Program-made: the position numbers and the translations under genes
Part shown: piece by piece, positions 15,210 to 34,771 of the stretch
Position numbering within the stretch: position 1 is the first letter of the stretch
How the letters are laid out: the number at the start of each line of letters is the position of its first letter
Notes under the pieces: generated by a model
Databases searched by the model: none
Seen by the model: only the letters and a program-made list of their open reading frames with translations
Told to the model about the DNA's origin: nothing
Source of the DNA: Parcubacteria group bacterium
GTDB lineage: Bacteria > Patescibacteriota > Minisyncoccia > Moranbacterales > UBA2206
Direction: 5' to 3'
Assembly: GCA_041659505.1 (NCBI GenBank)
Contig: JBAZYF010000002.1
Span: forward strand, 115,966-179,965
Length of the DNA: 64,000 bases

Positions 15210-16356
15210 ATTGTTCCGCGATTAAATTTAGATACTGCCTGGCAATCTTTTTCGGCTCAACGCATCTGCTGAGTTGCTCTCTCTGCTCACCTGTTTTTAT
15301 TTTGGCATTTTCATAGTTTTGCATAATGGATTCTATTTTTTCCATAAACTCATTTTCATTATTCTGTTCGATAACAATATTGTCATAATCCGGAAATGTT
15401 TTCAGATACTGCGACACTCCGCAATTCCTCGTCACGATCGTCGGCACATTCAAAAAAATCGCCTCTACGGCCGTATAGAGGAAGGCTTCAAATTGGGAGG
15501 GTAAGACGACTATTTTTGCGTTTCTGATGATTGCTGAACGCCTCGCCTTCTCTCCAGTGTAGCCAAAAAAAATCACTTGACTATTCCCGCGAAAATAGCT
15601 GGCTAGTTTCTCAAGATCAGCTCCTAAGATAACAAAATACATGTAGGGGTAGGTGGCTAATATTTTTGCTATTATTCTTTTCAAAACCTCACCGCCTTTC
15701 TTTTTCTGCACGCTTCCATAGAAAAGAAAATACTCCTTGCCTCGAAGATTCTCCGGAAAATCCTCATCACCAAGCTCAACATTTTCCAATGCGGCAGGAA
15801 GTGGAGCGATATTCATTTTGGAAAAATCAATGTTCCACAGAAAAAAAGAATAAACACCCATAAGCGAAGAACTGGTTAGAATCACCCGGGCTCTTTTAAC
15901 AATGAACTTCTCAAAAAAATTCAGAACGGAGCGAAAAATGAAATATTTCAGACCGCGCCTTCTTTCCAAGGCATACACTTCATGACTCGTCCCATGCAAC
16001 CGCGCGAGATAGTGATACTTTTTTCCCAAGAGCATTTTAGCTAAGATACAATAACCGCCAAAAACTTCATCTTCAATAACATCGTAATTTTGATAATTTT
16101 TTAAAAGCCAGCGAGAAGTGGCCCAATGAACGCCTAGCAGATTTTTCCGATTAGCTTTCACCCTAATCACTTCCACTCCGTCTTCCATCCCTCTCTTGTT
16201 TTTTTCAAAAGAAACCGCCAACACAGAAACACAGATTGATGGATCGCAACTTTTAATCGCTCTCGCCATCTCGTACACATATGTTCCGATGCCCCCCGCT
16301 CCGGTTTCTGGCGGATATTCAGGGGAGATAAATAATATGCTTTTCATAAAAAACAT
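15187..16356 (-). CDS. Glycosyltransferase family 1 (GT4-like)
   Basis: N-terminal ISPEYPPETGAGGIGTYV typical of GT4 acceptor domain; GT-B fold length. Confidence 0.75.
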   Translation of the reverse strand: MFFMKSILFISPEYPPETGAGGIGTYVYEMARAIKSCDPSICVSVLAVSFEKNKRGMEDGVEVIRVKANRKNLLGVHWATSRWLLKNYQNYDVIEDEVFGGYCILAKMLLGKKYHYLARLHGTSHEVYALERRRGLKYFIFRSVLNFFEKFIVKRARVILTSSSLMGVYSFFLWNIDFSKMNIAPLPAALENVELGDEDFPENLRGKEYFLFYGSVQKKKGGEVLKRIIAKILATYPYMYFVILGADLEKLASYFRGNSQVIFFGYTGEKARRSAIIRNAKIVVLPSQFEAFLYTAVEAIFLNVPTIVTRNCGVSQYLKTFPDYDNIVIEQNNENEFMEKIESIMQNYENAKIKTGEQREQLSRCVEPKKIARQYLNLIAEQYAEKRNI

Positions 16357-16359
16357 AAT

Positions 16360-18204
16360 TTAGCCTAAAAAATACTTCTTATGCCAATAATTAAAATTAA
16401 ACACTCGCAAAAGCTTAAAGCGATGATCGGCTTTGCCGTTCATATGTTCGGTGTGCATCAATTTCACATATTCCAGATCAAAAAATCCGTTATCGTGAAA
16501 TAAATACTCCTGAAATAAATCTTTCAATTCGTTTCGAATCCACTTGTCCAATGGTACACCAAAACCGCTTTTTTTCCTATAGATCAGGTCTTTGTCGAAA
16601 TATTTGCTCGCCAATTTCTTTAAAACATACTTTTGCTCGCCGTTTCTGATTTTCCAATTTCCCGAAAGCGAAAAAGCAAATTCCGCCAAATCCTTATCCA
16701 AAAGTGGATTGCGCATCTCAAGCGCTGTCGCCATTGTCGCCCGATCTCCTTTCACAAGATACCAATCAGGCAATTGAATTTTGCAATCAAGAAATAAGCT
16801 TTTATTGATTGCGTCTTTTTGTCCAAAAGTATTTTCATATTTTCGCGCTTCTGCAAAAATTGACTTCAAGCTTATCGGTTTTTTCAATAATTTTTCCGCT
16901 TCTTCCGGCAGAAAACTGCCACTGCCAAAAATAAACTGCCTTTGGGAAAAATCTAACCCAAAACTGTCAAGTAATTTGTGATAAGGATTATTTTTAGGGG
17001 TTATTTTTTTTCCGATACTCGCCAAAAAACTCAAATAGCGATTATTTTCAATAAACTCTTGCGCTTTGTATTTTGAATACCCCCCAAAAAGCTCATCTCC
17101 GCCGTCGCCACTTAAAACTACTGTGATTTTATCTTTGGCAAATTTGGAAACAAAATAGAGTGGAATAATTGCCGCGTCTGCCATTGGCTCGTCCAAATAA
17201 TCCAAAATTTCCAAAAAATTTTCCCGCACGAGCTGGTCTTCAAAGTAGCAAAGATTATAGTTTATGCCAAGTTTTGACGCCACCCGCTGAGCATACTCCG
17301 ATTCGTCCGCTTCCTTGGAATTTTTGTAGCACACCGTGAAAGAATTCACTTGCGGAGAAAAATCGGAAAGATATTTCGTGATTAGACTGCTATCCACTCC
17401 CCCGCTTAGAAAAACGCCAAGTGGCACATCTGACATTAGTCTTTTTTCGACTGATTTTTTGATCAAATCCTCTGTTTTGGCCAGTACCTCGTTTTCTGAA
17501 TAATTATTATTTATTTTAATTTCTTCCAGCTTCCAAAAATCGTACTTATTAATTATTTTCCATTTTTTCAGATCAAACTGAAAAGTAGTTGCCGGTTCCA
17601 GTTTTTTTATTTTATCTAAAATACTATTAGGCGAAGGAATGTAACCATAAAACAGATATTTTGCCAAAGACAACTCGTCGATCTTTAATTTTTGTTTAAT
17701 TTCGGGATTTTTAATGATGGCCTTTAGCTCAGATGCGAAGCAAAAAATTTCTTCGTCTAAATAGTAATACAACGGTTTTTTGCCGAAATGATCGCGCGCT
17801 AGTGTCAAGAGATTATTTTTCCGATCATAAATAGCAAACGCAAACATCCCCTCAATTTTTTCCACAATTTTTTGCCCAAATTCCTCATAGCCATGAATCA
17901 AAATTTCCGTGTCCGATTTGCTTTTCCATTGGTAACTTGTTCCTAATTCTTTTTTGATAGTTTGGTAATTATAGATTTCGCCATTGAAAATTATAGCGAC
18001 ACTTCCATCTTCATTAAACATCGGTTGTCTTCCTGCCTGCGAAAGATCGATGATGGAAAGCCGTCTTTGCCCTAAGGCAAGATTATTAATAAAAAAATCA
18101 CCCGATTGGTCGGGGCCTCTTTTTTTGAGCGTTTCAAGCATTTCCAAAAACAACTCTCGATTTACCGGAGTGCTTCTATTTAGTTGTCCTAAAATTCCAC
18201 ACAT
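16360..18204 (-). CDS. asnB: Asparagine synthase (glutamine-hydrolysing) family amidotransferase
   Basis: N-terminal MCGILG (Ntn Cys nucleophile), SGGxDSS PP-loop (FLSGGVDSS); 614 aa. Confidence 0.85.
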   Translation of the reverse strand: MCGILGQLNRSTPVNRELFLEMLETLKKRGPDQSGDFFINNLALGQRRLSIIDLSQAGRQPMFNEDGSVAIIFNGEIYNYQTIKKELGTSYQWKSKSDTEILIHGYEEFGQKIVEKIEGMFAFAIYDRKNNLLTLARDHFGKKPLYYYLDEEIFCFASELKAIIKNPEIKQKLKIDELSLAKYLFYGYIPSPNSILDKIKKLEPATTFQFDLKKWKIINKYDFWKLEEIKINNNYSENEVLAKTEDLIKKSVEKRLMSDVPLGVFLSGGVDSSLITKYLSDFSPQVNSFTVCYKNSKEADESEYAQRVASKLGINYNLCYFEDQLVRENFLEILDYLDEPMADAAIIPLYFVSKFAKDKITVVLSGDGGDELFGGYSKYKAQEFIENNRYLSFLASIGKKITPKNNPYHKLLDSFGLDFSQRQFIFGSGSFLPEEAEKLLKKPISLKSIFAEARKYENTFGQKDAINKSLFLDCKIQLPDWYLVKGDRATMATALEMRNPLLDKDLAEFAFSLSGNWKIRNGEQKYVLKKLASKYFDKDLIYRKKSGFGVPLDKWIRNELKDLFQEYLFHDNGFFDLEYVKLMHTEHMNGKADHRFKLLRVFNFNYWHKKYFLG

Positions 18205-19143
18205 CTATTTTTTTAATGAATTCACCAGCCTTCCGGTAAAAAAATACCTTATTCCATCAAAAAAACCGTCCCAGTATAACCCCACCAAATCAAATCGTTT
18301 TTCTCTTAGCATAAACAACGAATAAATCAATGGCCAAACCCAAGAAAAAAATAACAAATAACCGGTTTTTTGAAACAAATTGCCATGTCTAACAATAATC
18401 ACAGTTCTGTTTCTCATGAGACAATACGCTTTTTGCTTGAACTTGCCTCCTAGGGCGCGCGCGGTTTTATTATCTGCCAGAGTAACATTGTGATATATTT
18501 TTGCTTTTTTTAACATTCCGCATTTATAGCCATATCTTCCCGCCCTAAAAGCAAAATCTGACTCGGCAAAGGTTTGAATCAACTCTTCGTCAAAAAGACC
18601 ACAATTCTCAAAGACCTCTCTCTTGATAAGAAAAGCATTTGGAACGCCATCACTCTCACAAACGGCATGATTTGTTTCGTCAATCATACCGGATGTTTTT
18701 CCGGTAAATAGATTAATTTTTTGAAAATCCAAATATTTCTGTTTTGTCTTAAGATAATACATCGTCGGACCCACTATTCCATATACACTATTCGTTAAAG
18801 CAAAATCAAAAAGCACCCGAATCATCTCACGATCCAAAATATTGTCATCATCAATGAACAAGATAAATCTGCCGGATGATTTCTCATACCCCATATTTCT
18901 CGCTCTCGCTGTCATTTGCTGAACACTATTGTGGATAATTTTTCCATTGGCAACTTCCAGATCCGCAAGTTCGAATTTCTCAGTGCCATCATTTGAATTA
19001 TCATCAACTACGATGATTTCCCATGTCCCAATATCATGCTGGGAAGCATTGATCGATTTAATACAGCTCAATAATTCGCTTTTCCTATTTCTAGTTGTTA
19101 TAATGATAGATAAATCCATCTTGTTTATGATTGGCTTAATCAA
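18205..19143 (-). CDS. Glycosyltransferase family 2 (paralog of 8958..9857)
   Basis: IIITTRNRKSELLSCI...VVDDNSNDGT...FIDDDN; collinear similarity to 8958..9857 over full length. Confidence 0.75.
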   Translation of the reverse strand: MIKPIINKMDLSIIITTRNRKSELLSCIKSINASQHDIGTWEIIVVDDNSNDGTEKFELADLEVANGKIIHNSVQQMTARARNMGYEKSSGRFILFIDDDNILDREMIRVLFDFALTNSVYGIVGPTMYYLKTKQKYLDFQKINLFTGKTSGMIDETNHAVCESDGVPNAFLIKREVFENCGLFDEELIQTFAESDFAFRAGRYGYKCGMLKKAKIYHNVTLADNKTARALGGKFKQKAYCLMRNRTVIIVRHGNLFQKTGYLLFFSWVWPLIYSLFMLREKRFDLVGLYWDGFFDGIRYFFTGRLVNSLKK

Positions 19144-19627
19144 ATCTGTTTCTTATAAAGCGTGCCGGCACTCCTGCGACAATTGAGTATGGCTCAACAT
19201 TTTTCGTCACAACTGCGTTAGCACCCACAATCGCACCCGTTCCGATGGTCACGCCAGGCGACACAACCACATTCACGCCTAGCCACACATCATCCTCAAT
19301 TACAACCGACCCTCTCTTTTCTCCTTGAAACATCATAGGAACTTCTTTTTTTTCAAATTTGTGATGGGAAGTTAAGATGCTACAATTCGAAGCAATCATC
19401 ACATTGTTGCCAATTTTCAGCCCCCCCTGACCGGATATCGTGGAATTACGATTAATTGTAACACAATTTCCCAGCTCAATTCCCGCCGGACTCATCAGAT
19501 AGCAACCCTTTGCGATAAAAACTCTTTTCCCGATTTTCTTGCAAAAGAGACCCCAAAAAGCCGCACGCATTCTGGCGACTGAAAATACCGTTTCATTAAA
19601 AATTTTTTGCAAAATAGCAACCAGCAT
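19136..19627 (-). CDS. Hexapeptide-repeat (LbH) acyl/acetyltransferase
   Basis: Repeated [LIV]G.... hexapeptide pattern (IGNNVMIASNCSI..., VWLGVNVVVSPGVTIGTGAIVGANAVV). Confidence 0.7.
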   Translation of the reverse strand: MLVAILQKIFNETVFSVARMRAAFWGLFCKKIGKRVFIAKGCYLMSPAGIELGNCVTINRNSTISGQGGLKIGNNVMIASNCSILTSHHKFEKKEVPMMFQGEKRGSVVIEDDVWLGVNVVVSPGVTIGTGAIVGANAVVTKNVEPYSIVAGVPARFIRNRFD

Positions 19628-19658
19628 TATCTGTTTTTTATTCCGATTTAATCCATAT

Positions 19659-20705
19659 TTATTGCTTCCAATTCTCCCGACTCATCTCCGCCTGATTGAA
19701 TATTCCCACAAATTTGCCCCAAGCATAAACGATGAGTGTCACCCAGCAAGCCGGAAGGTGAAAAAACCAAGCCCTGTCTTTTTTTCTTGAGTAACCAATC
19801 AGCGCTTGCCCAAACAAGGGAAAAATCAAAACCGTATAGAGCAAAAATCGCAAAAGTCCCAGCGATGATTCTCCGCCAATTTCAAATTTGCTCCAATCAA
19901 ACACGCGTGACTTGTTTTTTTTGTGAAAGGTGTAATCCTTAATCCGTCTTTTTTGCTTCCTGATGAATTTGCCAAAATCCGCTTCGCAAAAAGTGTGGAT
20001 GATGCCAACTTTGACTTTGGCAATTTGAATCGCACCGCACTCGGCGATTTCCTTGGCAATCACGTCGATGTCAAACAGATATTTCCCGGTGTTGATTTTT
20101 TGCAAAAAAGCGGTGCGAAAAATTGTGCCGTTCGCGCCGACAGTCGGGATACCAGCCTTGGTTAATTTAATTTTGAGATAATCACCGCAATCAATTTCCT
20201 CGTGTGGCACCGCCGTCCATTTTTGGGTCAGATAGTTCCAACGATCATAATTGCCTAAAAATAGGCAGACGGGGTCGTTCATTCCAATTAGCGCGCAGTA
20301 ACGTTCAATGTAACCGCCTTCACGACGCCAAGTATAGCTGATCGGTTCAGATAGCATAATTTCTTGGTCCGCGAAAGGTGCCACCATTTTTTTCAGCCAC
20401 CCGGTGTCAGGCAAAAAATTATCCGAATCCAACGTCAGTGCCAGTTCATTTTTCGCCTCGCGCAAGGCCACCGCTTTCCCAGACTCGGCAGTTTTCAAAG
20501 GATTAGGAAAAACTTTTCCGCCATACTTTTTAACAATCTCCACTGTTGCGTCAGTCGATCCGCCATCGCCAACCAAAAACTCGAGCCTATCTTTGGGATA
20601 GTCCTGCTCAAATAGGCGACGCAAACATTCATCCAGCGTCAACTGCGCGTTGAGCGTCGCCATATAGACACTAATTGTCGGCAAATTATTTTCCATATCT
20701 AGCAA
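19659..20705 (-). CDS. Glycosyltransferase family 2 with C-terminal membrane segments
   Basis: ISVYMATLN...VGDGGSTD...LDSDN GT-A motifs; hydrophobic C-terminus. Confidence 0.7.
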   Translation of the reverse strand: MLDMENNLPTISVYMATLNAQLTLDECLRRLFEQDYPKDRLEFLVGDGGSTDATVEIVKKYGGKVFPNPLKTAESGKAVALREAKNELALTLDSDNFLPDTGWLKKMVAPFADQEIMLSEPISYTWRREGGYIERYCALIGMNDPVCLFLGNYDRWNYLTQKWTAVPHEEIDCGDYLKIKLTKAGIPTVGANGTIFRTAFLQKINTGKYLFDIDVIAKEIAECGAIQIAKVKVGIIHTFCEADFGKFIRKQKRRIKDYTFHKKNKSRVFDWSKFEIGGESSLGLLRFLLYTVLIFPLFGQALIGYSRKKDRAWFFHLPACWVTLIVYAWGKFVGIFNQAEMSRENWKQ

Positions 20706-22174
20706 TTTTCTTTTTTCGTTTTGGAAAAATCAATCATCTTTCCCAGCCATTTCCAGCCGGCTACAAAGAGAAATTTCAAATCACCCCAATTGCGAATGGA
20801 TATTAATTTCCGCCAGATAAATTGCGGGCTGGCAAATGACTTATACAGCCCCTGCACCAGATCTTTTGCTTCAAGGGAGCTGATCTGCGCTTTCATCACC
20901 ATTTCCCGCTGGTCATAGTGGGCATAGTCTAGCGTGCGCAATAAATCATTTTCGGCGCAATATTTGTGGAGCGGCGTGCCTGGGTAGGGAATGACGATCG
21001 TGCCCTGCAAGGTGTCGACATAACCTTCTTTGAATAATTTTTTGGCGAGTGCAATTGTGCGCTCGGCCATCTCTTTCGTTTCCCAAGGATAACCGATCAT
21101 GGCTGTGATATGCGGTTCTAGTCCGGCCTCTTTGCACAGCCTGAGTCCCGGCTCAATTTCTTCCACTTTGAGATTTTTGTCGATCCGATCCAGCGTTTCT
21201 TGATTGGCCGATTCCAGTCCGAAAAGAATGAAGCGAAAGCCGGCTTTTTTCATCATAGCCCAAATTTTTGGATCGCGAATTCCTGTGATGCGCATATTGC
21301 AACTCATCGTAATTTTTTTATTGTACCCTCGCTCAATCATCCCGTTGCAAAAATCTTCCAGCCATTGCCCGATGGGAAGCGAACCGGAATCTTCCATAAT
21401 TTCCCGCACACCCAGTTTGATCAAATTTTCCACTTCAGCCAGCGCTTTTTGCGCTGACATCGTGCGAAAACTCTTGCCCGGAAAAAGCGTCGTCCAAGAA
21501 CAGAAAGTACAGCGCCCCCACCAACAATCCCGCCCGCTCATGAGGTATGCGCCAGGAGTATACTTGAAATTGCCATTTTTGTAGGCATACAGTTTCCATT
21601 TCGTCAGCTCACGATCGATGAGTGGCAAATCATTGAGGTTGTGCTTGGATAGATCGGCTGGTCCGGAATTAACAATTTTTTGCGCGCCGTCGCGAAACCA
21701 AAATCCCCCTTCTAATATCTCGCCATTTTTTAAATGATTCGCCAGATTCAAAAGCATAAAATCATAATCCCCGCTCACCAGCACAAAATCAACCAGCGAC
21801 TCGCGCAGAGACTCTTCCGGAAAAGCCGTCACATGATCGCCCATCAGGACTATTTTCGCCTTAGGCAATTTGGTTTTGAGCTTGGCAATGATCTCCCAAT
21901 GCATTTTCACCACTGGTGTTTTTGTCTCAAGGGCAATCAGATCCGGCGCCTCAGCAACTATTCTTTTTTCCCAAGCTTCATAATCCAAACCTTCCGCAAT
22001 GCCCTCGTCCCAAAAAACGTCATAGCCGTTCTTTTTGAGAAGAGACGCCGCATAAGCGGGAATGACGGGATAGATAAAGGTTGGGGTGCTAAACCACTGA
22101 AACTGACGATTTTGACCAAGACAAGCAACGCCCTTTCCTGATTTCAAGGGCGGATAAGAAATAGCGATTTTCAT
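20699..22174 (-). CDS. B12-binding radical SAM protein (class B radical SAM, probable methyltransferase-type)
   Basis: N-terminal cobalamin-binding Rossmann-like domain; CxxxCxxC cluster motif CWWGRCTFC. Confidence 0.8.
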   Translation of the reverse strand: MKIAISYPPLKSGKGVACLGQNRQFQWFSTPTFIYPVIPAYAASLLKKNGYDVFWDEGIAEGLDYEAWEKRIVAEAPDLIALETKTPVVKMHWEIIAKLKTKLPKAKIVLMGDHVTAFPEESLRESLVDFVLVSGDYDFMLLNLANHLKNGEILEGGFWFRDGAQKIVNSGPADLSKHNLNDLPLIDRELTKWKLYAYKNGNFKYTPGAYLMSGRDCWWGRCTFCSWTTLFPGKSFRTMSAQKALAEVENLIKLGVREIMEDSGSLPIGQWLEDFCNGMIERGYNKKITMSCNMRITGIRDPKIWAMMKKAGFRFILFGLESANQETLDRIDKNLKVEEIEPGLRLCKEAGLEPHITAMIGYPWETKEMAERTIALAKKLFKEGYVDTLQGTIVIPYPGTPLHKYCAENDLLRTLDYAHYDQREMVMKAQISSLEAKDLVQGLYKSFASPQFIWRKLISIRNWGDLKFLFVAGWKWLGKMIDFSKTKKENC

Positions 22175-22366
22175 GAGGTCTCTACGAAATACGAGTCCGT
22201 ACCTACCTGCCGGTGGCTCACCGCCAAAAACTATGGCCGACGGAGCGCAGACAGGCGAATATACGAATCCGCTTTGATCAAGTTATAAATTAAAAAAACG
22301 ACTTCTAGGTTTCATTTTCTATAATAAACCAAAATGCTATTTTCTCCAAGGCTCTAAAAACACTTA
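22175..22366 (-). promoter_or_regulatory. GC-rich structured 5' leader / candidate cis-regulatory RNA upstream of the B12-radical SAM gene
   Basis: 192-nt intergenic gap inside otherwise tightly packed operon; locally GC-rich with several short stems (e.g. GGCGGTGAGCCACCGGC); identity not established. Confidence 0.3.
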
Positions 22367-23380
22367 CTAACGCATCTTGCTTTTAAGCTCTCGCGTGAAA
22401 AGAAAACCTTGCAAAAATCTTGCTCCGTAGACTAGATGTGTAAGAAAAACATACATCAGAGCATAGAGCGCTATCGGTAAATTTTTTTGACGACGCGTGA
22501 TATCAAAAAGGACAATGAGCATCGCCAGGCTATACATGATCCAGCCCAAAAGATAGAGAATTTCAAAAAAAACAAAAAAATGGCCAAGAATCAGTCCGAT
22601 AAAAACAAACAGAAAAAAAGCACTGGGGATGAAATAGCGGAATTTGAAGGAAGTTTTGGGATATTTTTTGGCAAAAAATCCGCGATGAATCCCATATCCT
22701 CCTATCTGTTTCAAGTGTCGCAAGAGCCCCTCGCGCCGATGATGCCAAACGATCACCGCTGGATCATAAAGAATCTTGTTATTTTCCTTGAGTTTATCAA
22801 TCACATCCAGACAAAATTTTGTGTCTTCCCCTGGCCAAAAATTACAATCAAAACCGCCTGCCTTGAGAAAGGCGCTCTTACGCACGGTCAGATTGACAGT
22901 CGGCCAGTCAGAAACTAGATGTTTTTCTCCCACTGGAACATAGCGCTCAGGAAAGCCGCCAGAAAGTTGACTGAGAAAGACCGCTCCGGAAACTTTTTGC
23001 AAAAAACTGTCCGATCCGGGAGTGATCGCCGGACCGCCGACAGCAGCGATACTTTCATCGGAAAAATCTTGATCTAAGATATTCAAAATGTCTTTACGCG
23101 GATAAGCATCATCGTCGATAAAAACTAAAAATTCACCCTGCGCATCGCGCACGGCCAAATTTCTTTTCACGGCCGGACCGCGACCACTGCCAATCTGCCT
23201 GGTTTTTGGCCAAGCTTCTGCCGTTTCCAGACCTTCGTCCGGATAAATAATAATTTCGTAGTCATCTCGCGAAATCTCCAGAATCTTCGGCACTGATTCG
23301 CGAATATAGTCGTTGACAACTTTAACCGGAATGATGAAACTGTATTTTATCAAATTAGCCATTTTTTGAGGTTTACGCAC
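22367..23380 (-). CDS. Glycosyltransferase family 2 with C-terminal TM helices
   Basis: FIIPVK...IDDDAYP DXD region; hydrophobic C-terminal third. Confidence 0.7.
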   Translation of the reverse strand: MRKPQKMANLIKYSFIIPVKVVNDYIRESVPKILEISRDDYEIIIYPDEGLETAEAWPKTRQIGSGRGPAVKRNLAVRDAQGEFLVFIDDDAYPRKDILNILDQDFSDESIAAVGGPAITPGSDSFLQKVSGAVFLSQLSGGFPERYVPVGEKHLVSDWPTVNLTVRKSAFLKAGGFDCNFWPGEDTKFCLDVIDKLKENNKILYDPAVIVWHHRREGLLRHLKQIGGYGIHRGFFAKKYPKTSFKFRYFIPSAFFLFVFIGLILGHFFVFFEILYLLGWIMYSLAMLIVLFDITRRQKNLPIALYALMYVFLTHLVYGARFLQGFLFTRELKSKMR

Positions 23381-23439
23381 TCACCCTGCTTACTTCCATA
23401 TTATACACCCACCAAACAAAATTGCGAAACTCTCCGTGC

Positions 23440-25342
23440 TTATTTTTTCAAATACGCGAGATTCGCCAAAAGCAACTCCTTCCCTTCCGGAGTGACTATT
23501 TTGGCAGTGGCAGTTTCGAGGTGCTTTTCCAAAAGCGCGATCTCCAAACTGATTTGTCTCTCCAGTCCCGAAATCAGTGCTAAACGCAGTTTACTATTGA
23601 GCGCATAAGCGCAGTTTTCAATCCCCAAAAGGAGCTCTTGGGAAATCTTGAGACTCAGGAGATGGGCGGAAAGAAACTTTTTCTCTGTTTGAGTTTTGAT
23701 CAGTTTTTGCGCAAAATAGTAATCAATATTTTTTAGTATCGCTCCCGCATCGGTCACAACTTCCACCGAACGTTCCGCTGTTCCGACGTTCCCCGCGTCA
23801 TCTTTCGCCACGATTTTCAAACCGTGCGTTCCTGGTTTTTGCAAACGCAGATCAATTTCGTTTTTTGCCAAAATTGCATTATCCCAAAAAATTTCCGCCG
23901 TAATTTTGTCCGCTTGAGATTGATTATCGCTAAGTGAGTACTCAATTTTAAGCACCCGATCGTTGGGATATTTTTTATTTTCTTTTGGATTCTGAATTTC
24001 AACTGTCGGCGCTTCCCTGTCACTATTTTCATCAATCAGTTTTCCCTCTTTAATTTCAACTGTTTTTTCCTCCGTCTCCCCTGCCACAGCCGTGCCAAAA
24101 ATTTTTGCAGTTGATTCTTCCGCCACCCCGTCGCTACGCTCCGAAATCTTGGCTACCTCCACGCGGTAATCACCGCCATTTCCCGTCCCTTCGGTGATGA
24201 TTTGATATTCTCCGGTTGACACCGGATCAGGAATAGTGATAAATTCATTTTCAATTCCATTGTAGCCCGTATAATATGCTCCTTTGATCTGATTTATGTC
24301 TTCAAGCGGTCGGATCTTTTTCCCTGCCCAATGCAACCCATCTGGCGCGATGATTTGAACGTCGATGGGAGAATACACAGAAACAATTAAAAGATTTTTA
24401 ATTAATGAATCATCATTTTCTCCAGTTGGCCTAACTCCGGTAAGCAATTCGAGTATGTCTTTTTGCGCTTTTGTTGGAAGATCAACATGCGCAGCATTAA
24501 TTTCGACATATTCATCACTAGGTATATTTTCACTTTTGGCTGATTCGAGTGGAACGGTTCCGTCTCCAATGCCCTTTGTTAATCCTCTATCTCCAATAAG
24601 TGGAATCTCAAAACCAAGAGGGTAACCATGATCCCAATACTTGCCCATTTCTGGAGCGTCAATAACTTTGAATCCAACTATTGTGCCCTCATCACTTCCA
24701 GCTTTTCCAACTATTTTATCAAATTCGATATAATTTAATTTGCCTTTTTTCTCTGCACTGTTCAAGTTTTCTAAAAAAATATTCTCAGGATAGTCTAATG
24801 GGTAAATTTTATAGACGTCGTCATTCTCAACATCTTGCAAATAATTATACACTGGTAACAATTCTTGCAGTGAAGCGATTGGTCTTTGATGGATATAGTC
24901 AAAAAGATCGGCATACTCAGGATTTCTTGCTTCCTGCGCTTCTTGTGTCAATATATGTTTCGTATACATATCCGACAAATCCCAAAACCAGCCATCTCCA
25001 TCCCATTTCAAATATGCCCCCGGCGCCCCGTTCTGTGGTGTTCCAAGCGTAACTAGTTGATCAATATCATCAGCATAATAATCTGATTCTACATATTCGC
25101 GAGCCAGTAGTCCTCCCATTGAATGCGCCACGATGTCCACTTTTGGCCAATTATTTTGCGTTGTAATGTCTTGGATTTTTTGCGCCAGAAGTTTTGCATT
25201 TTCAATATTGCTATCGCGCCACTCATAAGGCAACTCAAATAAATCCCTATCTGGGACATACCCATTATCCACAAACTCCTTGTAGAGATTATCATAAGTA
25301 TGCAAAATCAGATCCATTCGCCATTCGCCATCTTTTTTTTTG
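23440..25342 (-). CDS. C-terminal part of secreted beta-helix/lipase fusion protein: alpha/beta-hydrolase (PGAP1/lipase-like, GHSMGG elbow) + Ig-like and helical C-terminal domains; frame-shifted relative to 25292..26191
   Basis: AHSMGG nucleophile elbow; sequence continuity with upstream ORF across A-homopolymer (…PVLLIPGILGSQKK | KDGEWRMDLILHTYDN…). Confidence 0.65.
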
Positions 25343-26191
25343 TGAACCCAAAATTCCAGGAATAAGCAGCACTGGATCTTGATATTTTTCCTCCGTGAGA
25401 TGATAGGAGCAGTCAATATTTTCATTGATTGCCTGGAATTCACCATCGCCAAGGTCAAGCACTTTTTCCGGACCAGTACTTTTTCCCCACCAATTGTAGC
25501 GAAAATCTGCCATTACTCCATCTTCACCCTTGGAACAAAACACGTCTCCGGTGGCATTGTAAGAAAAAAATGTTCGATTAACTTTCACATCTTCTCCTTT
25601 TTCCAGACTAGCCATTATACCCAGATTGTTATCATGGATACGACTTCCGGAAATTCTTAACCTTGAGCCATACCAAGCCATAATTGCCCCAGTTGGACTG
25701 TCGGCATAAACAGTACTAACAAATGGATTAAAAAACATCTGTGGCGTATAGCTTCCTCCACCACTAATATCAGCATTCATAATACTCGCTTCTCCGCCAT
25801 CTTCGATATTTATTGAATAAGCGAATCTAGGATTAGTCTCTTCCGTTTTCTGAAAGATAACAGGGTTTTTTTGTGTTCCCTTCACGAATAATTTTCCCGC
25901 CACGTTTAAAGAAGATCTTCTGTCAAATGTCACTTTCACGCCACCTTTAATCACAAGCGTTGCCCCAGCCTCAACAGACACTGTTCCTTCGATGAATTTG
26001 TCCGATGTCCATTCCACATAACCCTTGATATCATCCGGACTCTCCTCCTCTCCTCTAACAAAGTCTCTAACGTCATATTTTTTCAATCCGATATTTTCTT
26101 TCCCAAAAAACGCTACCTGAAATGGCGAAATTGGTGCTAAGCTTAAAATTAAAGTCAATAAAAAAATACTTATTACTCGTACCCTCTTCAT
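25292..26191 (-). CDS. N-terminal part of same protein: signal peptide + right-handed parallel beta-helix domain, ending in start of lipase domain (PVLLIPGILGS)
   Basis: Signal peptide MKRVRVISIFLLTLILSLA; beta-helix repeats; terminates 3 codons after homopolymer in wrong frame. Confidence 0.65.
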   Translation of the reverse strand: MKRVRVISIFLLTLILSLAPISPFQVAFFGKENIGLKKYDVRDFVRGEEESPDDIKGYVEWTSDKFIEGTVSVEAGATLVIKGGVKVTFDRRSSLNVAGKLFVKGTQKNPVIFQKTEETNPRFAYSINIEDGGEASIMNADISGGGSYTPQMFFNPFVSTVYADSPTGAIMAWYGSRLRISGSRIHDNNLGIMASLEKGEDVKVNRTFFSYNATGDVFCSKGEDGVMADFRYNWWGKSTGPEKVLDLGDGEFQAINENIDCSYHLTEEKYQDPVLLIPGILGSQKKRWRMANGSDFAYL

Positions 26192-26454
26192 TTTTGTGAG
26201 AAATATTTAATTATTAAATATATATTGATTATTGGCCAAATTAAAAGAGCAAAATATCCCAACCATTTCACATCATAAAAATCAAACATCATTGAACCAA
26301 TGTTCAACAAGAAGCTCAAATTTCCTAAAACTGAAAAAACGACCAACGCTAAAAATTTCTTTTTAGTCGTCGCCAAAATTATCAGCGCAACAAGCACAGA
26401 CAAACCCAAAAGGCCTAGGCTCAACTTCAAGTCAAATGTTGGATCAGAAAACAT
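26188..26454 (-). CDS. Small membrane protein (88 aa, 2-3 TM), start overlaps downstream gene by 4 nt
   Basis: ORF track; hydrophobic helices; translational coupling overlap. Confidence 0.45.
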   Translation of the reverse strand: MFSDPTFDLKLSLGLLGLSVLVALIILATTKKKFLALVVFSVLGNLSFLLNIGSMMFDFYDVKWLGYFALLIWPIINIYLIIKYFSQK

Positions 26455-26545
26455 ACTTTTTTTTGCAAAACTTCCTCCGTCAAAACATTTGCCGGGGAGT
26501 TTTTCATTTTAATTTTTATTACGCACTTTATATTAAAAACTTTTT

Positions 26546-27487
26546 CTACAATTCAATACTCTTGAAATATTCAATCGTTTTTTGCAGACCGGCTTCCAAT
26601 TGCACCGTCGGCTCCCAATCTAGTTCTTTTTTGGCAAGAGAAATGTCCGGTTTTCGCTGGCGCGGATCATCTTGGGGTAAAGGTTTGAAAATAATCTTGC
26701 TTTTGCTTTCCGGAATCATCGCAATCACTTTTTCCGCCAATTCCTTAATGGTAAACTCGATCGGATTGCCAATATTCACCGGGCCGACAAAACCCTGCTC
26801 GTTGTTCATCATTTTCACCATGCCGGAAATCAAATCATCGACATATTGAAAACTGCGCGTCTGTGAGCCGTCGCCATAAATCGTGATGTCTTCATTTTTC
26901 AAAGCTTGGACGATGAAATTGGAAACCACCCGGCCATCGTGCGGGTGCATATTCGGTCCATAGGTGTTGAAAATGCGAATGACGCGGATCGGCAAATTGT
27001 GCTGGCGGTAATAGTCGAAAAAGAGAGTCTCAGCGCAACGCTTGCCTTCATCATAGCAAGAACGGATCCCGATCGGATTGACCCGCCCCCAATAACTTTC
27101 CACTTGCGGATGCACCTCTGGGTCGCCATAGACTTCGGAAGTGGACGCTTGCAAAATCCGCGCTTTTGTCCGCTTGGCGAGGCCTAGCATATTGATTGCG
27201 CCGTGGACAGATGTTTTGGTCGTCTGCACCGGATCAAACTGATAGTGAATTGGCGAGGCCGGACAAGCGAGGTTATAGATCTGATCAACTTCGACGTAGA
27301 GCGGAAAAGTCACATCGTGGCGCAGAAACTCGAATTTTTTGTTTTCCAAAAGATCCAAAATATTATTTTTATTGCCGGTGAAAAAGTTGTCCACGCACAA
27401 GACTTCATTTCCTTCCGCCAACAGTTTGCGACAAAGATGCGAACCAATAAATCCGGCTCCGCCGGTTACGAGAATTTTTTTGGACAT
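26546..27487 (-). CDS. UDP-glucuronate decarboxylase (UDP-xylose synthase)
   Basis: [43 protein letters not shown] matches UXS/ArnA-decarboxylase family N-terminus; 313 aa. Confidence 0.85.
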
Positions 27488-27512
27488 AAAAAATTTTAAA
27501 TATTTATAATTT

Positions 27513-28967
27513 CTAGTTTACCGCCAAACCGGAAGGTCCGGCTGGCGCAATCTCATCACCAAGCTCTGTGGAGAAAGGACTTTCATCCGCTCCAATATCC
27601 CAAGGAACGGTGCGCGTATCGCCGTCAATATCAACTGAAAAACTCAAATGAGCATCACTAGCCAAATTCGATCCGGCATCAATCGCTGCGGTGTCAGTGT
27701 CATCCAGATGAAAGTCTTCTGCATCCGTGGTCAAATCTGTGAAAGTTAATGTTTGTGAATCAATATTATGGCTGCCCGGAGTATCATCCAAATCGCTTAT
27801 ATTATACTCCGACGCTAAATCAAACGATCCGGTACCACCATAACCGATGCCACAGTTTTGCGCAATATTATTTTTAGCCACAATAGTGCCCAAATCGACT
27901 TGAAAACAAACATCCTCGCCACCCAGAGTTGCAAAGGCGCCATAAACGGTGTTGTTGTAGGCATAGAGCGTATTGGACTCACCAATCAGATAAATTCCGC
28001 CTTCACTGAAGCCGGAAATAATATTATTCCAAACCTTATACGTTCCCGTCTCAGTTCCCGTAGCCATGATGCCATAGCTGGTCCAGCCTTCCGCTGGTGC
28101 TTTTATGATGCAATTACTTATCCTGGTCAGTCCGGAAATGTTGGCCAGGGAAACACCAATCGTATTCCCAGTTCCCATATTATCATCCAAAATTTGCAAA
28201 CCATCCAGCCAGACATTTGGACCGCCAATATTGATCGGCGGGTCACTCTGATTATCCCCATCAACAGAATGAACTGCTAGCGTATATTTACCCGTCTCAC
28301 CCCAGACTCCTGCGTGCCGCTGACTTGTGCCTACTTGCGTCGTCAGGTTAGGTGTAAATATTTTAATGAAACGAGTATCATCTGTCGTCCAACCACCAAC
28401 CATCACGACTCCAGCGCTAACATCATCTTCTGCGTCACCATAACAAGCAATGTTCCATTGCAGATCGCCCGCCACCAAATCATTACCCAGATCATTGGCA
28501 GTAGCATCACCTCCAGCCGTCCAGTCATCAAAGTTAGCCACCGTCGAATCAAAAGCTAAACTTTCAATTCCTGCTTCAGCATCAACAAGTGATGTATAGG
28601 CACGATAAACACTAACAACCTGCGTAGCGCTGGCGCTATGCGGAGCCCCGCCAGTCGAAGACTGAACGGAAAAAACGGAGCTGGAAGTTCGACCAGTGAT
28701 AAAAGCCAAATAGACTGTTCCGGAAATATCATATTGCAAAACATCACCTACTCCAACATTATTCGGCATCGCATCAGAAAAAGTTGCCGTTGTGCCGGAA
28801 ATTGTCACTGTTTCGTGCGTTGTGTTTAGATTGGTAGTATTGGCTGGTCCGACCGAACGATAAATTTGCGTCGCTGCGCTTGCCGAAAAAGAAAAAGACA
28901 GACCGCCTAAAAGTAGAAAAGAAAAAAAACATAATTCTAGTACTTTTTTTTGTGTTTCTTTTTTCAT
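27513..28967 (-). CDS. Secreted right-handed beta-helix (pectate-lyase-like fold) protein
   Basis: Internal start [31 protein letters not shown] (signal peptide) preferred over track's upstream start; beta-helix repeats; C-terminal WDIGADE…PSGLAVN tail shared with 40282..41799. Confidence 0.7.
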
Positions 28968-29103
28968 CTTTTTTATAATTAAAAAGCTTAACTTATTTGA
29001 AGTAATTATACTCCATATTAGACCAAAATGGCAAGTAAAAATACAAAAGGGACTTTTCCGTTTCAGAAAAATCCCTTTTATCGTGTTGCAAAACAAACCA
29101 TCT

Positions 29104-29973
29104 TCATGGACAAGACGATGTGCCCACGTTAGACGCAAAGATTATCTTTTTTATCCTTAAGGATTCAAACAGCGGCAATCTTGACACATTTTTATATGAA
29201 TATGCATTGGCGCTGACAAATCCGATTACACTGCAATCAGGACTAAAATCAGCGCTAACGAGATCGATAACCAAATCTCGATTAAACGTGTGCCACTGAC
29301 CATCATTGAATAACCCCAACCCGAACGTTGCTATGGTCGCCGTGTGAGAATTAAGCTCGGGATCGATATATTTGTACTGCATCGTAGCGTTTACCGTGGA
29401 ATTATCAGGAAGTAAAACGGAAAGTATAATCGAGATATAGGGGAGATAGCTTCCCGTCCCTGCCGCTAAAACTTCCACGTACATCTGGGTATTTTTCAGG
29501 TCGAGTCCAGTCAAGCTAGTCTTATTTTGACTGGCTGAGGTGGCGGTACCGCTAGTGCCAAAAAGTACTTCTTCGACACCATCGAGTCCATCAATAAGAG
29601 CACTACCCCTGACTTTTGTCCAGTTGTCATGGGCACCATTGCCCTCGACAACATTAACAACCAATTCGGTAGAAAAAGCCGACTCAATATTATCACCATA
29701 AGCCGTAACGGCGAAATATTGGTTAATGCCCTCCTCAAATTCCATCCCGATATCCGCCAAGTCAATCATTGTGACATTCCCAACATCCACCGGTGGACCA
29801 TAGACGCCAGACTCCGTTCCGCGATAGAGCTTATAGCCCAATACGGCCGGATCATTGTTTGGACACCACGCCAATTTGACACTAGTCAAAATTGTGGCGC
29901 TAGCATTCACCGTCAGTATTGACAAAACTAAAAAAACGACCAAAGATCCAAAAAACCGATTTCTTTTCCTCAT
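29104..29973 (-). CDS. Secreted protein with N-terminal signal/anchor and fibronectin type III-like domain
   Basis: Signal peptide; FN3 pattern LAWCPNNDPAVLGYKLYRGTESGVYG…YFAVTAYGDNIESAFS. Confidence 0.6.
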   Translation of the reverse strand: MRKRNRFFGSLVVFLVLSILTVNASATILTSVKLAWCPNNDPAVLGYKLYRGTESGVYGPPVDVGNVTMIDLADIGMEFEEGINQYFAVTAYGDNIESAFSTELVVNVVEGNGAHDNWTKVRGSALIDGLDGVEEVLFGTSGTATSASQNKTSLTGLDLKNTQMYVEVLAAGTGSYLPYISIILSVLLPDNSTVNATMQYKYIDPELNSHTATIATFGLGLFNDGQWHTFNRDLVIDLVSADFSPDCSVIGFVSANAYSYKNVSRLPLFESLRIKKIIFASNVGTSSCP

Positions 29974-30156
29974 GGCTATTTCCTCCCTCTATTTTGAAGT
30001 TTTTTGTTTTTTTATGAAAATAAAAAAAGCAGACCTAAAAACACAAGCCTCCTTCTTGTTTTTTTGTTTTTTTATCTTGTTTAGTAAAGAGCCATTTCTT
30101 TGTTCAATGATAGTATATTTCCCGCTATAAATCAAGGGGATTCCCCCGTACCAAAA

Positions 30157-30654
30157 TTATTCAAATTTCACCCGCAATTTTTTTCCCAGATACCGCTCAT
30201 AGTTATCCGGGCTATTGATGTATTGAATGTCAAAATGATGGCTGATGCGGTAGCTGATGAAATAGGATTTCACTGGTGTATCGTCAATAATCACATCCGC
30301 CACCAGATGGAAAAATACCCCCAAAGCCAAGGCCAAAAATACAGTTTTGGCTAATTTACTCTTGAGCAAATAGACCAAGAGCAAGAAAATAAGCACATAT
30401 TCCCAACCATGAAAAAACACATAAATCTTGCCTGATTTCAGAAATTGGTAACCATTTTGGAAATATTCCCATTGCCAATTCCAGCCAAAAGCCAGGAAAT
30501 AGTCAATGAAATGATCCAGGTCAATCAGAAATCCACCCAAAAAACCGAATGAAAATGCCCAAAACGGCTTTTTCCAAATGCGCCACGCGATAAGACCAGC
30601 CAAGAGGCTAAAAAACAAATGGATCGAAAGATGCACCGGTAAAGATAAATTCAT
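30157..30654 (-). CDS. Integral membrane protein, possible membrane-bound metal-dependent hydrolase (DUF457/YdjM-like)
   Basis: 4-5 TM helices, conserved His/Asp in loops (DLDHFIDY, HGWEY); family call tentative. Confidence 0.45.
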   Translation of the reverse strand: MNLSLPVHLSIHLFFSLLAGLIAWRIWKKPFWAFSFGFLGGFLIDLDHFIDYFLAFGWNWQWEYFQNGYQFLKSGKIYVFFHGWEYVLIFLLLVYLLKSKLAKTVFLALALGVFFHLVADVIIDDTPVKSYFISYRISHHFDIQYINSPDNYERYLGKKLRVKFE

Positions 30655-30709
30655 AAAAAATATAGCTTAATTTACTTCTTAAGCATAATATATTAGAATT
30701 AAAAACACA

Positions 30710-32452
30710 ATGGCACTTAATTCCGACCAGAAAAAATTTATTAAAAAAAATTGGGAAACGCTTTCCTTGGAAGAAATGGCGGCCGATTTGAGTTTGCCGA
30801 AAAAAACTATCTTGAAATATCTCAAAAATCATCTGCCAGAAAAAAAATTCCGGAATTTATTCAGTAATAATCCAACTACCAAAGATACGCCTCTTTCAAA
30901 AACAAATGACGGCTTTGAACTGAAAACATTCCTTTTGGAAAATATCAACTATTTCATCCTGTTTTTTGTTCTGATTTTTATCAGCTATCTTAATTCTTTC
31001 GATAATGCCTTTGTTTCTGATGACATTCTTGGAACACAAAAAAATGCCGCTTTGTCCGACTGGAGCTATCTGCGCTATCTTGCCTCCTGGAGCTTCTTGC
31101 CACACTTCATCTTGGTTAAATTCGGACTAATTGCTCCTTTTTATTTTCGCGCCGTAAATATTTTTTTTCACCTTGGATCAACTTGCCTCATTTTTATCAT
31201 TCTCACTCTTCTGGCTAAAAACAAGCCACTCGCTCTTTTTACCGCCCTGCTGTTCGCCGTCCACCCGATTCTAACCGAATCAATTTCTTGGATCTCCGCT
31301 CGTCCCTATGGCCAATATGCCTTTTTCTTTCTCGCCTCATTTCTCCTATACTTGCTCTCTTTTCAATCGATAAAAAATTCAAAAAAACTGCTAGTCTATT
31401 CTGGCACACTTTTTTTCTTTGCGCTCGTTTCTTCGGAAAAAGCGGTCGCTCTTTTTGCCATTTTTCCGCTCTATGAATTGGCCTTTGGCAATCTGAAAAA
31501 AAATTGGAAAAAATTTTTACCCTTCCTTATTGCTTCTGTCATTTTTACTTCAATCTATCTAACCAGAACGAGTCAAAGATTCTCTGATTTGAACACGCAA
31601 TATTATGCAGATGCCAGCGGACTGTATAACCCACTGGTGCAAATCCCCGTGGCTATCAGTTCCTACCTTGGCCTCATTTTTTGGCCACAAGGTCTCACGC
31701 TCTATCACACAGAATTGACTTTTAACACAATCGGCTATCTCGCTTGCCTTTCTGTCTTTCTTCTTTTTTCCGGCCTCGCTTACTATGGTTGGAAAAAAAA
31801 TCGCTTTGTCTTTTTTTGGCTTTCATTTTTCTTCATCTCTCTCACTCCAACACTCACTCCGCTCAAAGTTTCTTGGATCGTCGCTGAACGCTACGCCTAC
31901 ATCGGAACACTGGGCATCCTCGCCACTTTCGCTTACTTTTTTACATGGCTCTGGGAAAAATTTCCCCAAAAAAAAGTTTGGCTCTCTGCAATTTTTGCGC
32001 TGATAATTTTGGCGCTCTCCATCCGCACGATCGTGCGCAATATTGACTGGGACAATGAGGATAATCTTTGGATTTCCACGGGAAAAACCTCTCCATCCGG
32101 ACACGTCATCTACAACAACCTCGGCGATGTTTATGCCCGCCGGAAAGATTATGACCGAGCAATTTTAGAATTTAAACGAGCCACCGAAATTAACCCCCGC
32201 TACGCCGATGCTTATCATAATCTAGCCAACACCTACCAAGCGATGGGAAAAATAGATGAGGCCATTGCCGGCTACCAAAAAGCGCTGGAACTAAATCCGG
32301 CACTTTGGCAATCAGCTCAAAATCTCGCTTCGATTTACTTCACGCGAGGTGAGTTTGGAAAAGCGCATGAAGCAATCAAAAAAGCGGTCGAAATTAGTCC
32401 GACCGACCAGAACTTGCAAGCAAATTTAAAGTTGATTGAAAGCAAGTTATGA
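30710..32452 (+). CDS. TMTC/PMT-like GT-C membrane glycosyltransferase with C-terminal TPR repeats (putative protein O-mannosyltransferase-like)
   Basis: Multi-TM N-region (~430 aa) followed by 3-4 TPR repeats (AYHNLANTYQAMGKIDEAIAGYQKALELNP). Confidence 0.65.
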   Translation: MALNSDQKKFIKKNWETLSLEEMAADLSLPKKTILKYLKNHLPEKKFRNLFSNNPTTKDTPLSKTNDGFELKTFLLENINYFILFFVLIFISYLNSFDNAFVSDDILGTQKNAALSDWSYLRYLASWSFLPHFILVKFGLIAPFYFRAVNIFFHLGSTCLIFIILTLLAKNKPLALFTALLFAVHPILTESISWISARPYGQYAFFFLASFLLYLLSFQSIKNSKKLLVYSGTLFFFALVSSEKAVALFAIFPLYELAFGNLKKNWKKFLPFLIASVIFTSIYLTRTSQRFSDLNTQYYADASGLYNPLVQIPVAISSYLGLIFWPQGLTLYHTELTFNTIGYLACLSVFLLFSGLAYYGWKKNRFVFFWLSFFFISLTPTLTPLKVSWIVAERYAYIGTLGILATFAYFFTWLWEKFPQKKVWLSAIFALIILALSIRTIVRNIDWDNEDNLWISTGKTSPSGHVIYNNLGDVYARRKDYDRAILEFKRATEINPRYADAYHNLANTYQAMGKIDEAIAGYQKALELNPALWQSAQNLASIYFTRGEFGKAHEAIKKAVEISPTDQNLQANLKLIESKL

Positions 32453-32481
32453 CAGACGTAAATCAAGGATCTTCTCGAAAA

Positions 32482-33417
32482 TTATTTCCGCTTCCTCACG
32501 ATATACATCGGCCGATTAGTCACTTCAGCGTGGATGTTGGCGATGTAGAGCGCAATAAGCCCAAGACAAACAAGTACGATGCCAATCAAAAACAGAATTA
32601 CGACCGCTAAAATTGCCGGGCCGGAGAAATAAAGATTATTGGTTATATAGCGGTTAATCATGATGAAAATTCCCAGAAGCCCGGAAAAAAATGTGATAAT
32701 AATCCCCAGATAGCCAGCCAGCTTCAGAGGAAACAAGCTGAAGGAAATCATGCTATTAAACGCTAGCCGGACCAATTTCCAAAAATTATAGGCCGGAACA
32801 CCATGGATCCGCTCGTTGGCTTCGAAATAGATATATTCACGCCGAAAACCGAGCCAATCGATCAGCGCGCGCGTCATGCGATTTTTTTCCGTGAGCCGAT
32901 TGAACTCATCAATCACGATGCGATCCAACAAGCGAAAATCAGTTGCGCGCGTCACAATTTCCATGTCTGATATGCGATTGATCATTTTATAAAACAGATA
33001 GGAACCCATTCTTTTTATTAATTTTTCCTTCTTACTTTTCTCTCGCACGCCAACGACAACCTCCGCGCCTTTTTCCCATTTCGCGATAAATTCAGGAATT
33101 TTTTCGATCGGATGCTGGAGATCTGCATCTAAAATTATACAAGCTTCTCCGCGACAGCTGTTGATTCCAGCTGTCACTGCGATTTCCTTGCCAAAATTGC
33201 GGGAAAAATCCAAAACATTTATCCGAGCATCTTTCTCGGCAATTTTTTCTAATTCCAAAATACTCTTGTCACAACTGCCGTCATTTACAAAAATAAGCTC
33301 CCAAATATAAGGAAGTCTGTCGAGTACCGTTTGAATTTTGGCATAAAAAAGCGGAACGTTTTTTTCTTCGTTATAAAGCGGAACAACAATAGAAATCATT
33401 TTTTTTCCTGGTTCCAT
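32482..33417 (-). CDS. Polyprenol-phosphate glycosyltransferase (GtrB/ArnC/DPM1-like GT2) with two C-terminal TM helices
   Basis: ISIVVPLYNEE…FVNDGSCD…ILDADLQHP motifs; start at MEPGKKM (33417) chosen to avoid overlap with upstream stop. Confidence 0.8.
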   Translation of the reverse strand: MEPGKKMISIVVPLYNEEKNVPLFYAKIQTVLDRLPYIWELIFVNDGSCDKSILELEKIAEKDARINVLDFSRNFGKEIAVTAGINSCRGEACIILDADLQHPIEKIPEFIAKWEKGAEVVVGVREKSKKEKLIKRMGSYLFYKMINRISDMEIVTRATDFRLLDRIVIDEFNRLTEKNRMTRALIDWLGFRREYIYFEANERIHGVPAYNFWKLVRLAFNSMISFSLFPLKLAGYLGIIITFFSGLLGIFIMINRYITNNLYFSGPAILAVVILFLIGIVLVCLGLIALYIANIHAEVTNRPMYIVRKRK

Positions 33418-33421
33418 ATAT

Positions 33422-34687: not shown

Positions 34688-34707
34688 AATTGTTTAACTG
34701 CAGTGTC

Positions 34708-34730: not shown

Positions 34731-34771
34731 ATTTATTTCTTACTCAACTAAGCATCTACAAAAAGTCGCAT

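Follow-up and report, generated by a model that had tools for sequence, protein, structure and literature searches.

The locus described here raises the question of whether two overlapping open reading frames (ORFs) are two genes or the halves of one and, if the latter, what separated them and whether the full-length protein may still be made. It lies in a stretch of 64,000 nucleotides (hereafter the window, whose positions are used throughout) from a Parcubacteria group bacterium of the order Moranbacterales (assembly GCA_041659505.1, contig JBAZYF010000002.1, positions 115,966 to 179,965). An earlier note, made from the sequence of the window, had proposed that a gene for a secreted hydrolase is split there by a frameshift at a poly-A run. 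The two ORFs overlap out of frame on the minus strand exactly as that note had described, 25292..26191 encoding 299 amino acids (aa) and 23440..25458 encoding 672 aa. NCBI lists them as two hypothetical proteins: MFA5961777.1 (WC848_03800), which is the upstream half, and MFA5961776.1 (WC848_03795), which is the downstream half, annotated from an internal Met as 625 aa (100% identity). As detailed below, sequence comparison strongly supports the conclusion that both are halves of a single frameshifted and conserved gene of 916 residues, and its interruption is best read, at slightly better than even confidence, as a young allele in which a run of eight A (A8) has grown to nine (A9).

The junction of the two reading frames

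The junction of the two ORFs consists of exactly nine A on the minus strand, at 25333..25341, and this run is the longest homopolymer within the hydrolase gene; the run had been recognized correctly in the earlier note. The overlap reads ...GGT TCA CAA AAA AAA A|GA TGG... on the minus strand, the tract taking in part of the Gln284 codon, the Lys285 and Lys286 codons and one supernumerary A. On its 5' side, 25334..26191 encodes residues 1-286 in the homologous frame, ending ...PVLLIPGILGSQKK, and matches intact homologues along their first 286 residues; the upstream ORF then leaves this frame for a tail of 13 residues without homology, RWRMANGSDFAYL, followed by TGA (25292..25333). On its 3' side, 23440..25332 encodes residues 287-916 (DGEWRMDL...LAYLKK and a stop) in 630 codons that contain no further stop or frameshift. 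This second frame, to which the peptide MDLILHTYDNLYK belongs, reads on as DGEWRMDLILHTY...AHSMGG.

Compared with the upstream frame, the downstream one is shifted by +1, and the DNA thus carries one base too many. The earlier note had assumed the opposite, namely that one extra A would fuse the two ORFs. When the tract was rebuilt at different lengths, A9 (as found) gave the 299-aa product ending in the non-homologous RWRMANGSDFAYL*, and the addition of one A (A10) led to a stop and a 294-aa product. Only the removal of one A (A8), which gave 916 aa reading ...GILGSQKKDGEWRMDL..., or the addition of two (A11), which gave 917 aa with one extra Lys, produced a continuous frame. The rule that one more A in the reads would mean an assembly error rested on the same wrong direction of repair and is also incorrect. 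A -1 ribosomal frameshift or the insertion of a single A was likewise considered as a repair and rejected, as either gives KKKMANGEWI*, with a stop after 10 codons.

Homologues and the ancestral tract

The A8-fused protein matched several hundred proteins, and for more than 100 the match had E < 1e-150. A length of 870-920 aa was common among these homologues, many of which aligned colinearly with 93-100% of the query, and most came from Candidatus Moranbacteria/Moraniibacteriota and from other Parcubacteria metagenome-assembled genomes; the only database entry identical to the query at 100% was its own downstream half. Because the fused protein matches so many proteins, many of them colinear with it, the split lies far beyond chance. 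The two halves are colinear with single-chain homologues, and a change in tract length alone restores the frame. The proposal that a poly-A run divides a single gene for a secreted hydrolase of several domains is strongly supported by these homologues, as well as by the domain and fold matches presented below. For annotation this means that MFA5961776.1 and MFA5961777.1 are halves of one gene and are not to be counted as two protein families.

Over 100 intact homologues (~880-920 aa) read GILGSQKKDGxW at the junction, with the spacing of the A8 version, and homology resumes at the residue adjoining the tract. In an alignment of 31 sequences the junction follows the pattern DPVIIIPGILGS-x-K-K-x-G-x-W-Q-x-D, which the A8 reading GSQKKDGEWRMD fits without a gap; SQKKDG is identical in five homologues of this alignment. 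Three homologues carry two extra residues at the turn formed by the junction, and an extra Lys translated from an A11 messenger RNA (mRNA) should therefore be tolerated.

The same codons were compared in the loci of relatives. The closest of these, L086 and L087, read TCG CAA AAA AAA GAT (CAAAAAAAAGAT), an in-frame A8; L083-L085 read CAA AAA AAG GA (CAAAAAAAGGA), an in-frame A7 followed by G; and L088 reads CAG AAA AAA GAT (CAGAAAAAAGAT), an in-frame A6. In more distant homologues the tract is missing. All tblastn matches in the fetched loci that reached the junction crossed it in a single frame. The comparison with orthologues that the earlier note had suggested accordingly found A8, A7 or A6 in the relatives, all in frame and none split. 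The ancestral state is therefore A8, and the event in the window a +1 insertion.

The proteins that resemble the fused product most are uncharacterised 'PGAP1 family protein / alpha/beta hydrolase' entries of Moranbacteria and Parcubacteria (~880-920 aa; for example P0004 of Candidatus Moranbacteria RIFOXYA12_FULL_35_19 and P0107 of GW2011_GWC1_45_18). They have the same architecture, are colinear over 93-100% at 37-60% identity, and share GILGSxKKxGxW, AHSMGG and the invariant Asp and His with the window protein. In contrast to all of them, the window copy is interrupted, by its one extra A. With its frame repaired, the sequence joins a large family of uncharacterised secreted proteins with a beta-solenoid and a lipase-like domain, a family abundant in Moranbacteria. 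No paralogue of the hydrolase was found within the 64-kb window.

One homologue, P0115 (532 aa, 67% identity over 35% of the query), was considered as a fragment of a broken orthologue and rejected: it forms one continuous tblastn frame over residues 6-493 and 724-893, and is a shorter in-frame orthologue without the middle segment. The orthologue in Candidatus Moranbacteria DMXN01000032 (L088, 4626..6599) is also in frame and lacks the segment matching residues 494-723, which corresponds to the end of the hydrolase region and the first beta-sandwich; its annotated start (5001) probably omits about 125 N-terminal codons.

Domains of the encoded protein

An AlphaFold model of the fused protein, based on the 31-sequence alignment, had a mean predicted local distance difference test score (pLDDT) of 84 and a predicted template modelling score of 0.71. 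It begins with a helix (residues 2-18) and a low-confidence or disordered linker (20-51). The N-terminus, MKRVRVISIFLLTLILSLAPIS (26126..26191, minus strand, as for all features of the gene), has a basic N-region followed by a hydrophobic helix and is probably a Sec signal peptide, to judge from its composition. There follows a beta-solenoid of residues ~55-260 (25412..26029), built of stacked short strands (58-220) with a pLDDT of ~90. The Pfam family Beta_helix (PF13229) scored 20.6-23.3 bits on this domain, below its cut-off of 25.9, and PF13229 or PF05048 matches are present in some homologues. In Foldseek searches nearly all of the better matches were beta-helix or beta-solenoid proteins, with polysaccharide lyase family PL6 or pectate lyases, tailspikes and Rhombotarget A at the top, and the best of them reached an E of only 0.014 and a template modelling (TM) score of ~0.3. 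The label of right-handed beta-helix given to this domain by the earlier note is weakly supported by these scores; a short right-handed beta-helix is its probable identity.

The central part of the protein, residues ~270-590 (24421..25384), is a lipase-like alpha/beta-hydrolase domain, and it is this domain that contains the frameshift. Four Pfam families matched the fused protein at or above their cut-offs: LCAT (7.8e-14, 52.1 bits, cut-off 21), PGAP1 (5.9e-10, 39.7 bits, cut-off 24.3), Palm_thioest (28.9 bits, cut-off 26.8) and Lipase_2 (20.3 bits, cut-off 20.3). The PGAP1 match spans residues 273-391, across the junction at 286/287; with the downstream half alone, the Pfam match was confined to the later part of the profile. 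A sequence search of the PDB returned Bacillus LipA-type lipases around the AHSMGG elbow, along with LCAT/LPLA2. Foldseek searches of the PDB with the central domain returned BlEst2 (6wpx, 9.1e-10), LPLA2 (4x90, 9.0e-9) and many family I lipases (~1e-5 to 1e-6), and in the model the domain has the alpha/beta-hydrolase fold. The fused protein contains a GxSxG elbow, an acid and a histidine in Ser-Asp-His order. Ser357 in AHSMGG (25120..25122), Asp543 in GDGTVP (24562..24564) and His568 in AAHVD (24487..24489) are invariant across the 31 sequences and intact in the window protein, Ser357 being the putative nucleophile; Asp543 and His568 are assigned to the triad by their conservation and order and not by superposition.

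The break falls 14-20 residues into this domain, with PVLLIPGILGS upstream of it and Ser357, Asp543 and His568 downstream. In the model, the junction is the turn of a beta hairpin (283-286/289-292) just past the first core strand, PVLLIPG; the glycine-rich loop that follows this strand is presumably the oxyanion region, by analogy with LipA-type lipases. When the 299-aa product was modelled by itself, its residues 275-299 were disordered, with pLDDT below 50.

Two beta-sandwich domains, immunoglobulin-like (Ig-like) or fibronectin type III-like (Fn3-like) by the secondary structure of the model, occupy residues ~599-812 (23755..24396). Foldseek matched the sandwich domain to the Fn3-like modules of CbhA (1.5e-4), and some homologues have Big_7 or Big_13 Pfam matches. 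The protein ends in a helical bundle of residues ~815-916 (23443..23748; helices 815-827, 834-859, 866-893 and 901-915; pLDDT ~90). The description of the downstream ORF as a lipase or alpha/beta hydrolase with Ig-like domains agrees with the LCAT and PGAP1 families in Pfam and with the lipases and the Fn3-like match in Foldseek. With LCAT/LPLA2 (PF02450; PDB 4x90) and the class-2 lipases (LipA, 1i6w; BlEst2, 6wpx) the window protein shares the fold, the AHSMGG elbow, the N-terminal strand with its glycine loop and the Ser-Asp-His order, at an identity of only 12-27%. Unlike them it adds the beta-solenoid, Ig-like and helical domains, and its enzyme activity is a prediction from these similarities.

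A young insertion allele as the favoured explanation

Of the possible causes of the split, we favour, with somewhat more confidence than doubt, a young A8-to-A9 insertion allele of a conserved secreted lipase-like gene, either null or leaky. The frameshift is an ordinary homopolymer event. It would have begun with the expansion by a single A of the A8 tract in the Gln-Lys-Lys codons of the gene for the 916-residue protein. Translated as written, the A9 allele would give a secreted fragment of 299 residues, comprising the beta-solenoid, an orphan first hydrolase strand and 13 nonsense residues, and the catalytic Ser-Asp-His part would be left without a signal peptide or first strand. For this reason the enzyme should be off, and we infer that the encoded product is inactive. 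The allele is young, as read from its sequence, because the 630 downstream codons show no second lesion and all family-invariant residues are intact; such a lack of further lesions means that the event is recent, or that it is not real, or that the frame is still in use.

Some full-length protein could nevertheless be made if the allele is leaky. A slip of RNA polymerase on the nine-A run could give mRNA with 8 or 11 A; alternatively, the lysine transfer RNA (tRNA-Lys) could slip +1 on AAA-A. Runs of nine A or T have been described as slippery for bacterial RNA polymerase, yielding transcripts with up to six extra nucleotides (PMC5009743), and endosymbiont genes with poly-A frameshifts are likewise rescued by transcriptional slippage according to work cited in that paper. 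A close parallel is tssM1 of Citrobacter rodentium, in which an A11 tract needs -1 or +2 nucleotides, mRNAs with 10-15 A are produced, ~20% of full-length protein is obtained and both products are needed (PMC4256274). As in the window gene, a poly-A interruption is relieved there by one A fewer or two more; the two cases differ in that the window tract is A9 and not A11 and that its interruption is not conserved in relatives, and rescue of the window gene is a possibility only. A search of the literature found nothing on homopolymer frameshifts in Patescibacteria, nor on PGAP1 in the candidate phyla radiation.

Several observations weigh against the favoured explanation. Transcription errors at A/T runs are mostly insertions of a single nucleotide (PMC5574713), which here lead into the wrong frame, and rescue by slippage would consequently be inefficient. 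The codon after the tract, AGA, is not rare (7.8 per 1000), and a pause that could promote +1 slipping of the ribosome is not apparent. A read set shared by the available assemblies (see below) would carry an artefact of the library or of the consensus at this tract into both of them. Finally, a metagenome scan, a genome scan and exact look-ups of both halves and of both flanking proteins found no second strain, the nearest relative being only 60% identical. The three candidate causes named in the earlier note (indel error, phase variation and recent pseudogene) remain the right list, to which rescue by transcriptional or +1 ribosomal slippage, omitted there, has to be added; the sequence by itself cannot fully separate the three.

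A possible consensus artefact

Beside the young allele, the explanation that survives best, although we consider it unlikely, is that the organism carries A8 and an intact gene, and that the extra A arose by stutter in the polymerase chain reaction (PCR) of library preparation, by sequencing error or through low local coverage and was carried into both assemblies. Indel errors classically occur at homopolymers; the 630 flawless downstream codons, with the invariant residues of the family retained, are what an intact gene would show; and A9 is confirmed in no other sample. Against this, a Logan contig assembled independently from run SRR18595301 was found to be 100% identical to window 21163..26855 (5693 bp), A9 included. 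Two different assemblers thus agree base for base over 5.7 kb, and an error of a single assembler becomes unlikely. The two assemblies probably rest on the same reads, and a local consensus error would then appear in both. A majority-rule consensus of short reads is rarely wrong at a nine-base run, and this too counts against an artefact.

The behaviour of other homopolymers in the window bears on the same point. The window was scanned for A/T runs of at least 7 and G/C runs of at least 5 at which a change of one base would extend an ORF by over 100 codons, and two sites were flagged, the A9 junction and 60799..60807. The window contains 42 A/T runs of at least 8, where 37 +/- 4 are expected from a first-order Markov model of its dinucleotide composition, and 35 of the 42 lie in ORFs of at least 150 aa. 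Only one of the 42 breaks a gene; the remaining 41, which include three runs of nine bases, leave every gene undisturbed. The data set is therefore not generally prone to homopolymer error, and a slip of a single assembler or an error-prone platform is a less likely cause. We infer from these results that A9 is truly genomic.

The second flagged site, a T9 run at 60799..60807, was rejected as a frameshift: an ftsI-like penicillin-binding-protein gene of 644 aa there naturally extends 26 nucleotides (60796..60821) into the beginning of a murF-like gene of 461 aa, and the nine-base run is in frame for both. A deletion of one base there would artificially fuse the two genes into 1101 codons, and the site is a trap for automated frameshift detectors. 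At two further nine-base A/T runs, 4568..4576 and 58613..58621, a one-base change lengthens no ORF, and these runs are usable as internal controls for stutter at the level of the reads.

Phase variation and programmed recoding as less likely explanations

Homopolymer phase variation of surface-structure genes is known from the contingency loci of Campylobacter, Haemophilus, Helicobacter and Mycoplasma, and phase-variable tracts are common in loci of surface-glycan type in host-associated bacteria. One could propose that slipped-strand mispairing during replication turns the gene reversibly ON (A8) and OFF (A9), and that the assembled population was mostly OFF. The likeness to those loci is a homopolymer in the 5' third of a secreted or surface gene, a glycan locus and an out-of-frame state: the window gene encodes a secreted or surface enzyme inside a surface-glycan cluster (a GT1, four GT2, AsnB, an acetyltransferase, UXS and a flippase), the A8 tract is uninterrupted at this site in its nearest relatives, and the OFF allele shows no secondary decay. 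Unlike in those loci, the tract is short and is not maintained across relatives, being A8 in L086 and L087, A7 and G in L083-L085 and A6 in L088; it is not conserved as DNA, since relatives other than the nearest interrupt it (A7 + G, or CAG AAA AAA). Known switching tracts are mostly longer than A8/A9, the window has no more runs of this kind than its composition predicts (42 vs 37 +/- 4), every tblastn match that reaches the site in the fetched loci is in frame, and no tract-length polymorphism was observed. A maintained contingency tract thus lacks any positive sign, phase variation is suggested by the kind of gene and locus only, and we regard a phase-variable contingency locus as improbable. 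The wider proposition that the nine-A run is a working expression switch, either by A8/A9 phase variation or by constitutive slippage that gives a low dose of full-length protein beside the truncated beta-solenoid, is improbable to a similar degree; if it holds, the secreted lipase-like protein could be switched and would be a candidate for regulating the interaction with a host.

An additional scenario, which appears very improbable, is programmed recoding, in which A9 is the normal state and the gene has two products, the 299-aa beta-solenoid protein and a minor full-length enzyme obtained by transcriptional slippage or by +1 frameshifting at AAA-AAA-AGA. The geometry resembles that of tssM1 (PMC4256274), bacterial RNA polymerase does slip on nine-A runs (PMC5009743), and tRNA-Lys is predicted to re-pair perfectly in the +1 frame on the run. 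However, no relative has this arrangement, the orthologues examined all being single ORFs; the break is inside a domain and not at its boundary, leaving a disordered tail; and a -1 slip or the insertion of one A soon meets the stop noted above. No stimulatory element was evident at the site: AGA after the tract is a common codon, the RNA fold downstream of the tract was only marginal (z = -1.96; 8 of 200 shuffles were as good), and no Rfam family matched within 22000..28000. Transcriptional slippage requires no such stimulatory element.

That the two ORFs are genuinely separate genes, as the two GenBank entries and the modular composition of the family (some members swap the beta-solenoid for other N-terminal domains) might suggest, is effectively refuted, since within one hydrolase domain the cut puts the strand PVLLIPGILGS on one side and the catalytic Ser, Asp and His on the other, the 625-aa product would have no signal peptide, the last 13 residues of the upstream product are non-homologous and every homologue is a single chain across the junction.

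Genomic context

Bacteria of the candidate phyla radiation are thought to depend on host lipids. In organisms with such small genomes, a secreted protein with an LCAT/phospholipase-like core would be a reasonable candidate for lipid acquisition or for attack on the host surface.

Directly upstream of the hydrolase gene is a gene for a small membrane protein of 88 aa (26188..26454, minus strand), whose stop overlaps the start of the hydrolase gene (ATGA). The protein matched no Pfam family. Homologous ORFs of 92-100 aa adjoin the 5' side of the orthologue in L086 (5718..6020), L087 (5718..6020) and L088 (4343..4621), and the small membrane protein (88-100 aa) is a likely functional partner of the hydrolase. 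The 100-aa ORFs that lie over the orthologue starts in L086 and L087 were considered as a second split and rejected; they are this conserved small membrane protein gene.

The gene pair is embedded in a minus-strand cluster for surface-glycan biosynthesis, at ~13000..35000, that encodes GT1/GT4 enzymes, an AsnB-type amidotransferase, four GT2 enzymes, a hexapeptide acyltransferase, a B12-binding radical SAM (S-adenosylmethionine) enzyme, a UXS-like (UDP-glucuronate-decarboxylase-like) epimerase, a second beta-helix-like protein and a Wzx-like flippase. In L086-L088, in contrast, the neighbours of the pair are type IV pilus genes.

The second beta-helix-like protein, at 27513..29138 on the minus strand, also has a sub-threshold Beta_helix match and is encoded by a 541-aa ORF that starts at TTG. 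This ORF is probably too long at its 5' end, as the true start and signal peptide seem to lie further in, at an internal MKKETQKK... with hydrophobic residues behind it. In L086 (2007..5648) and L087 (1938..5648), the genes for the small membrane protein and the hydrolase are closely preceded by one for a fused restriction-modification protein of 1213-1236 aa (N6_Mtase, Eco57I and Methylase_S), which the window lacks at the corresponding place.

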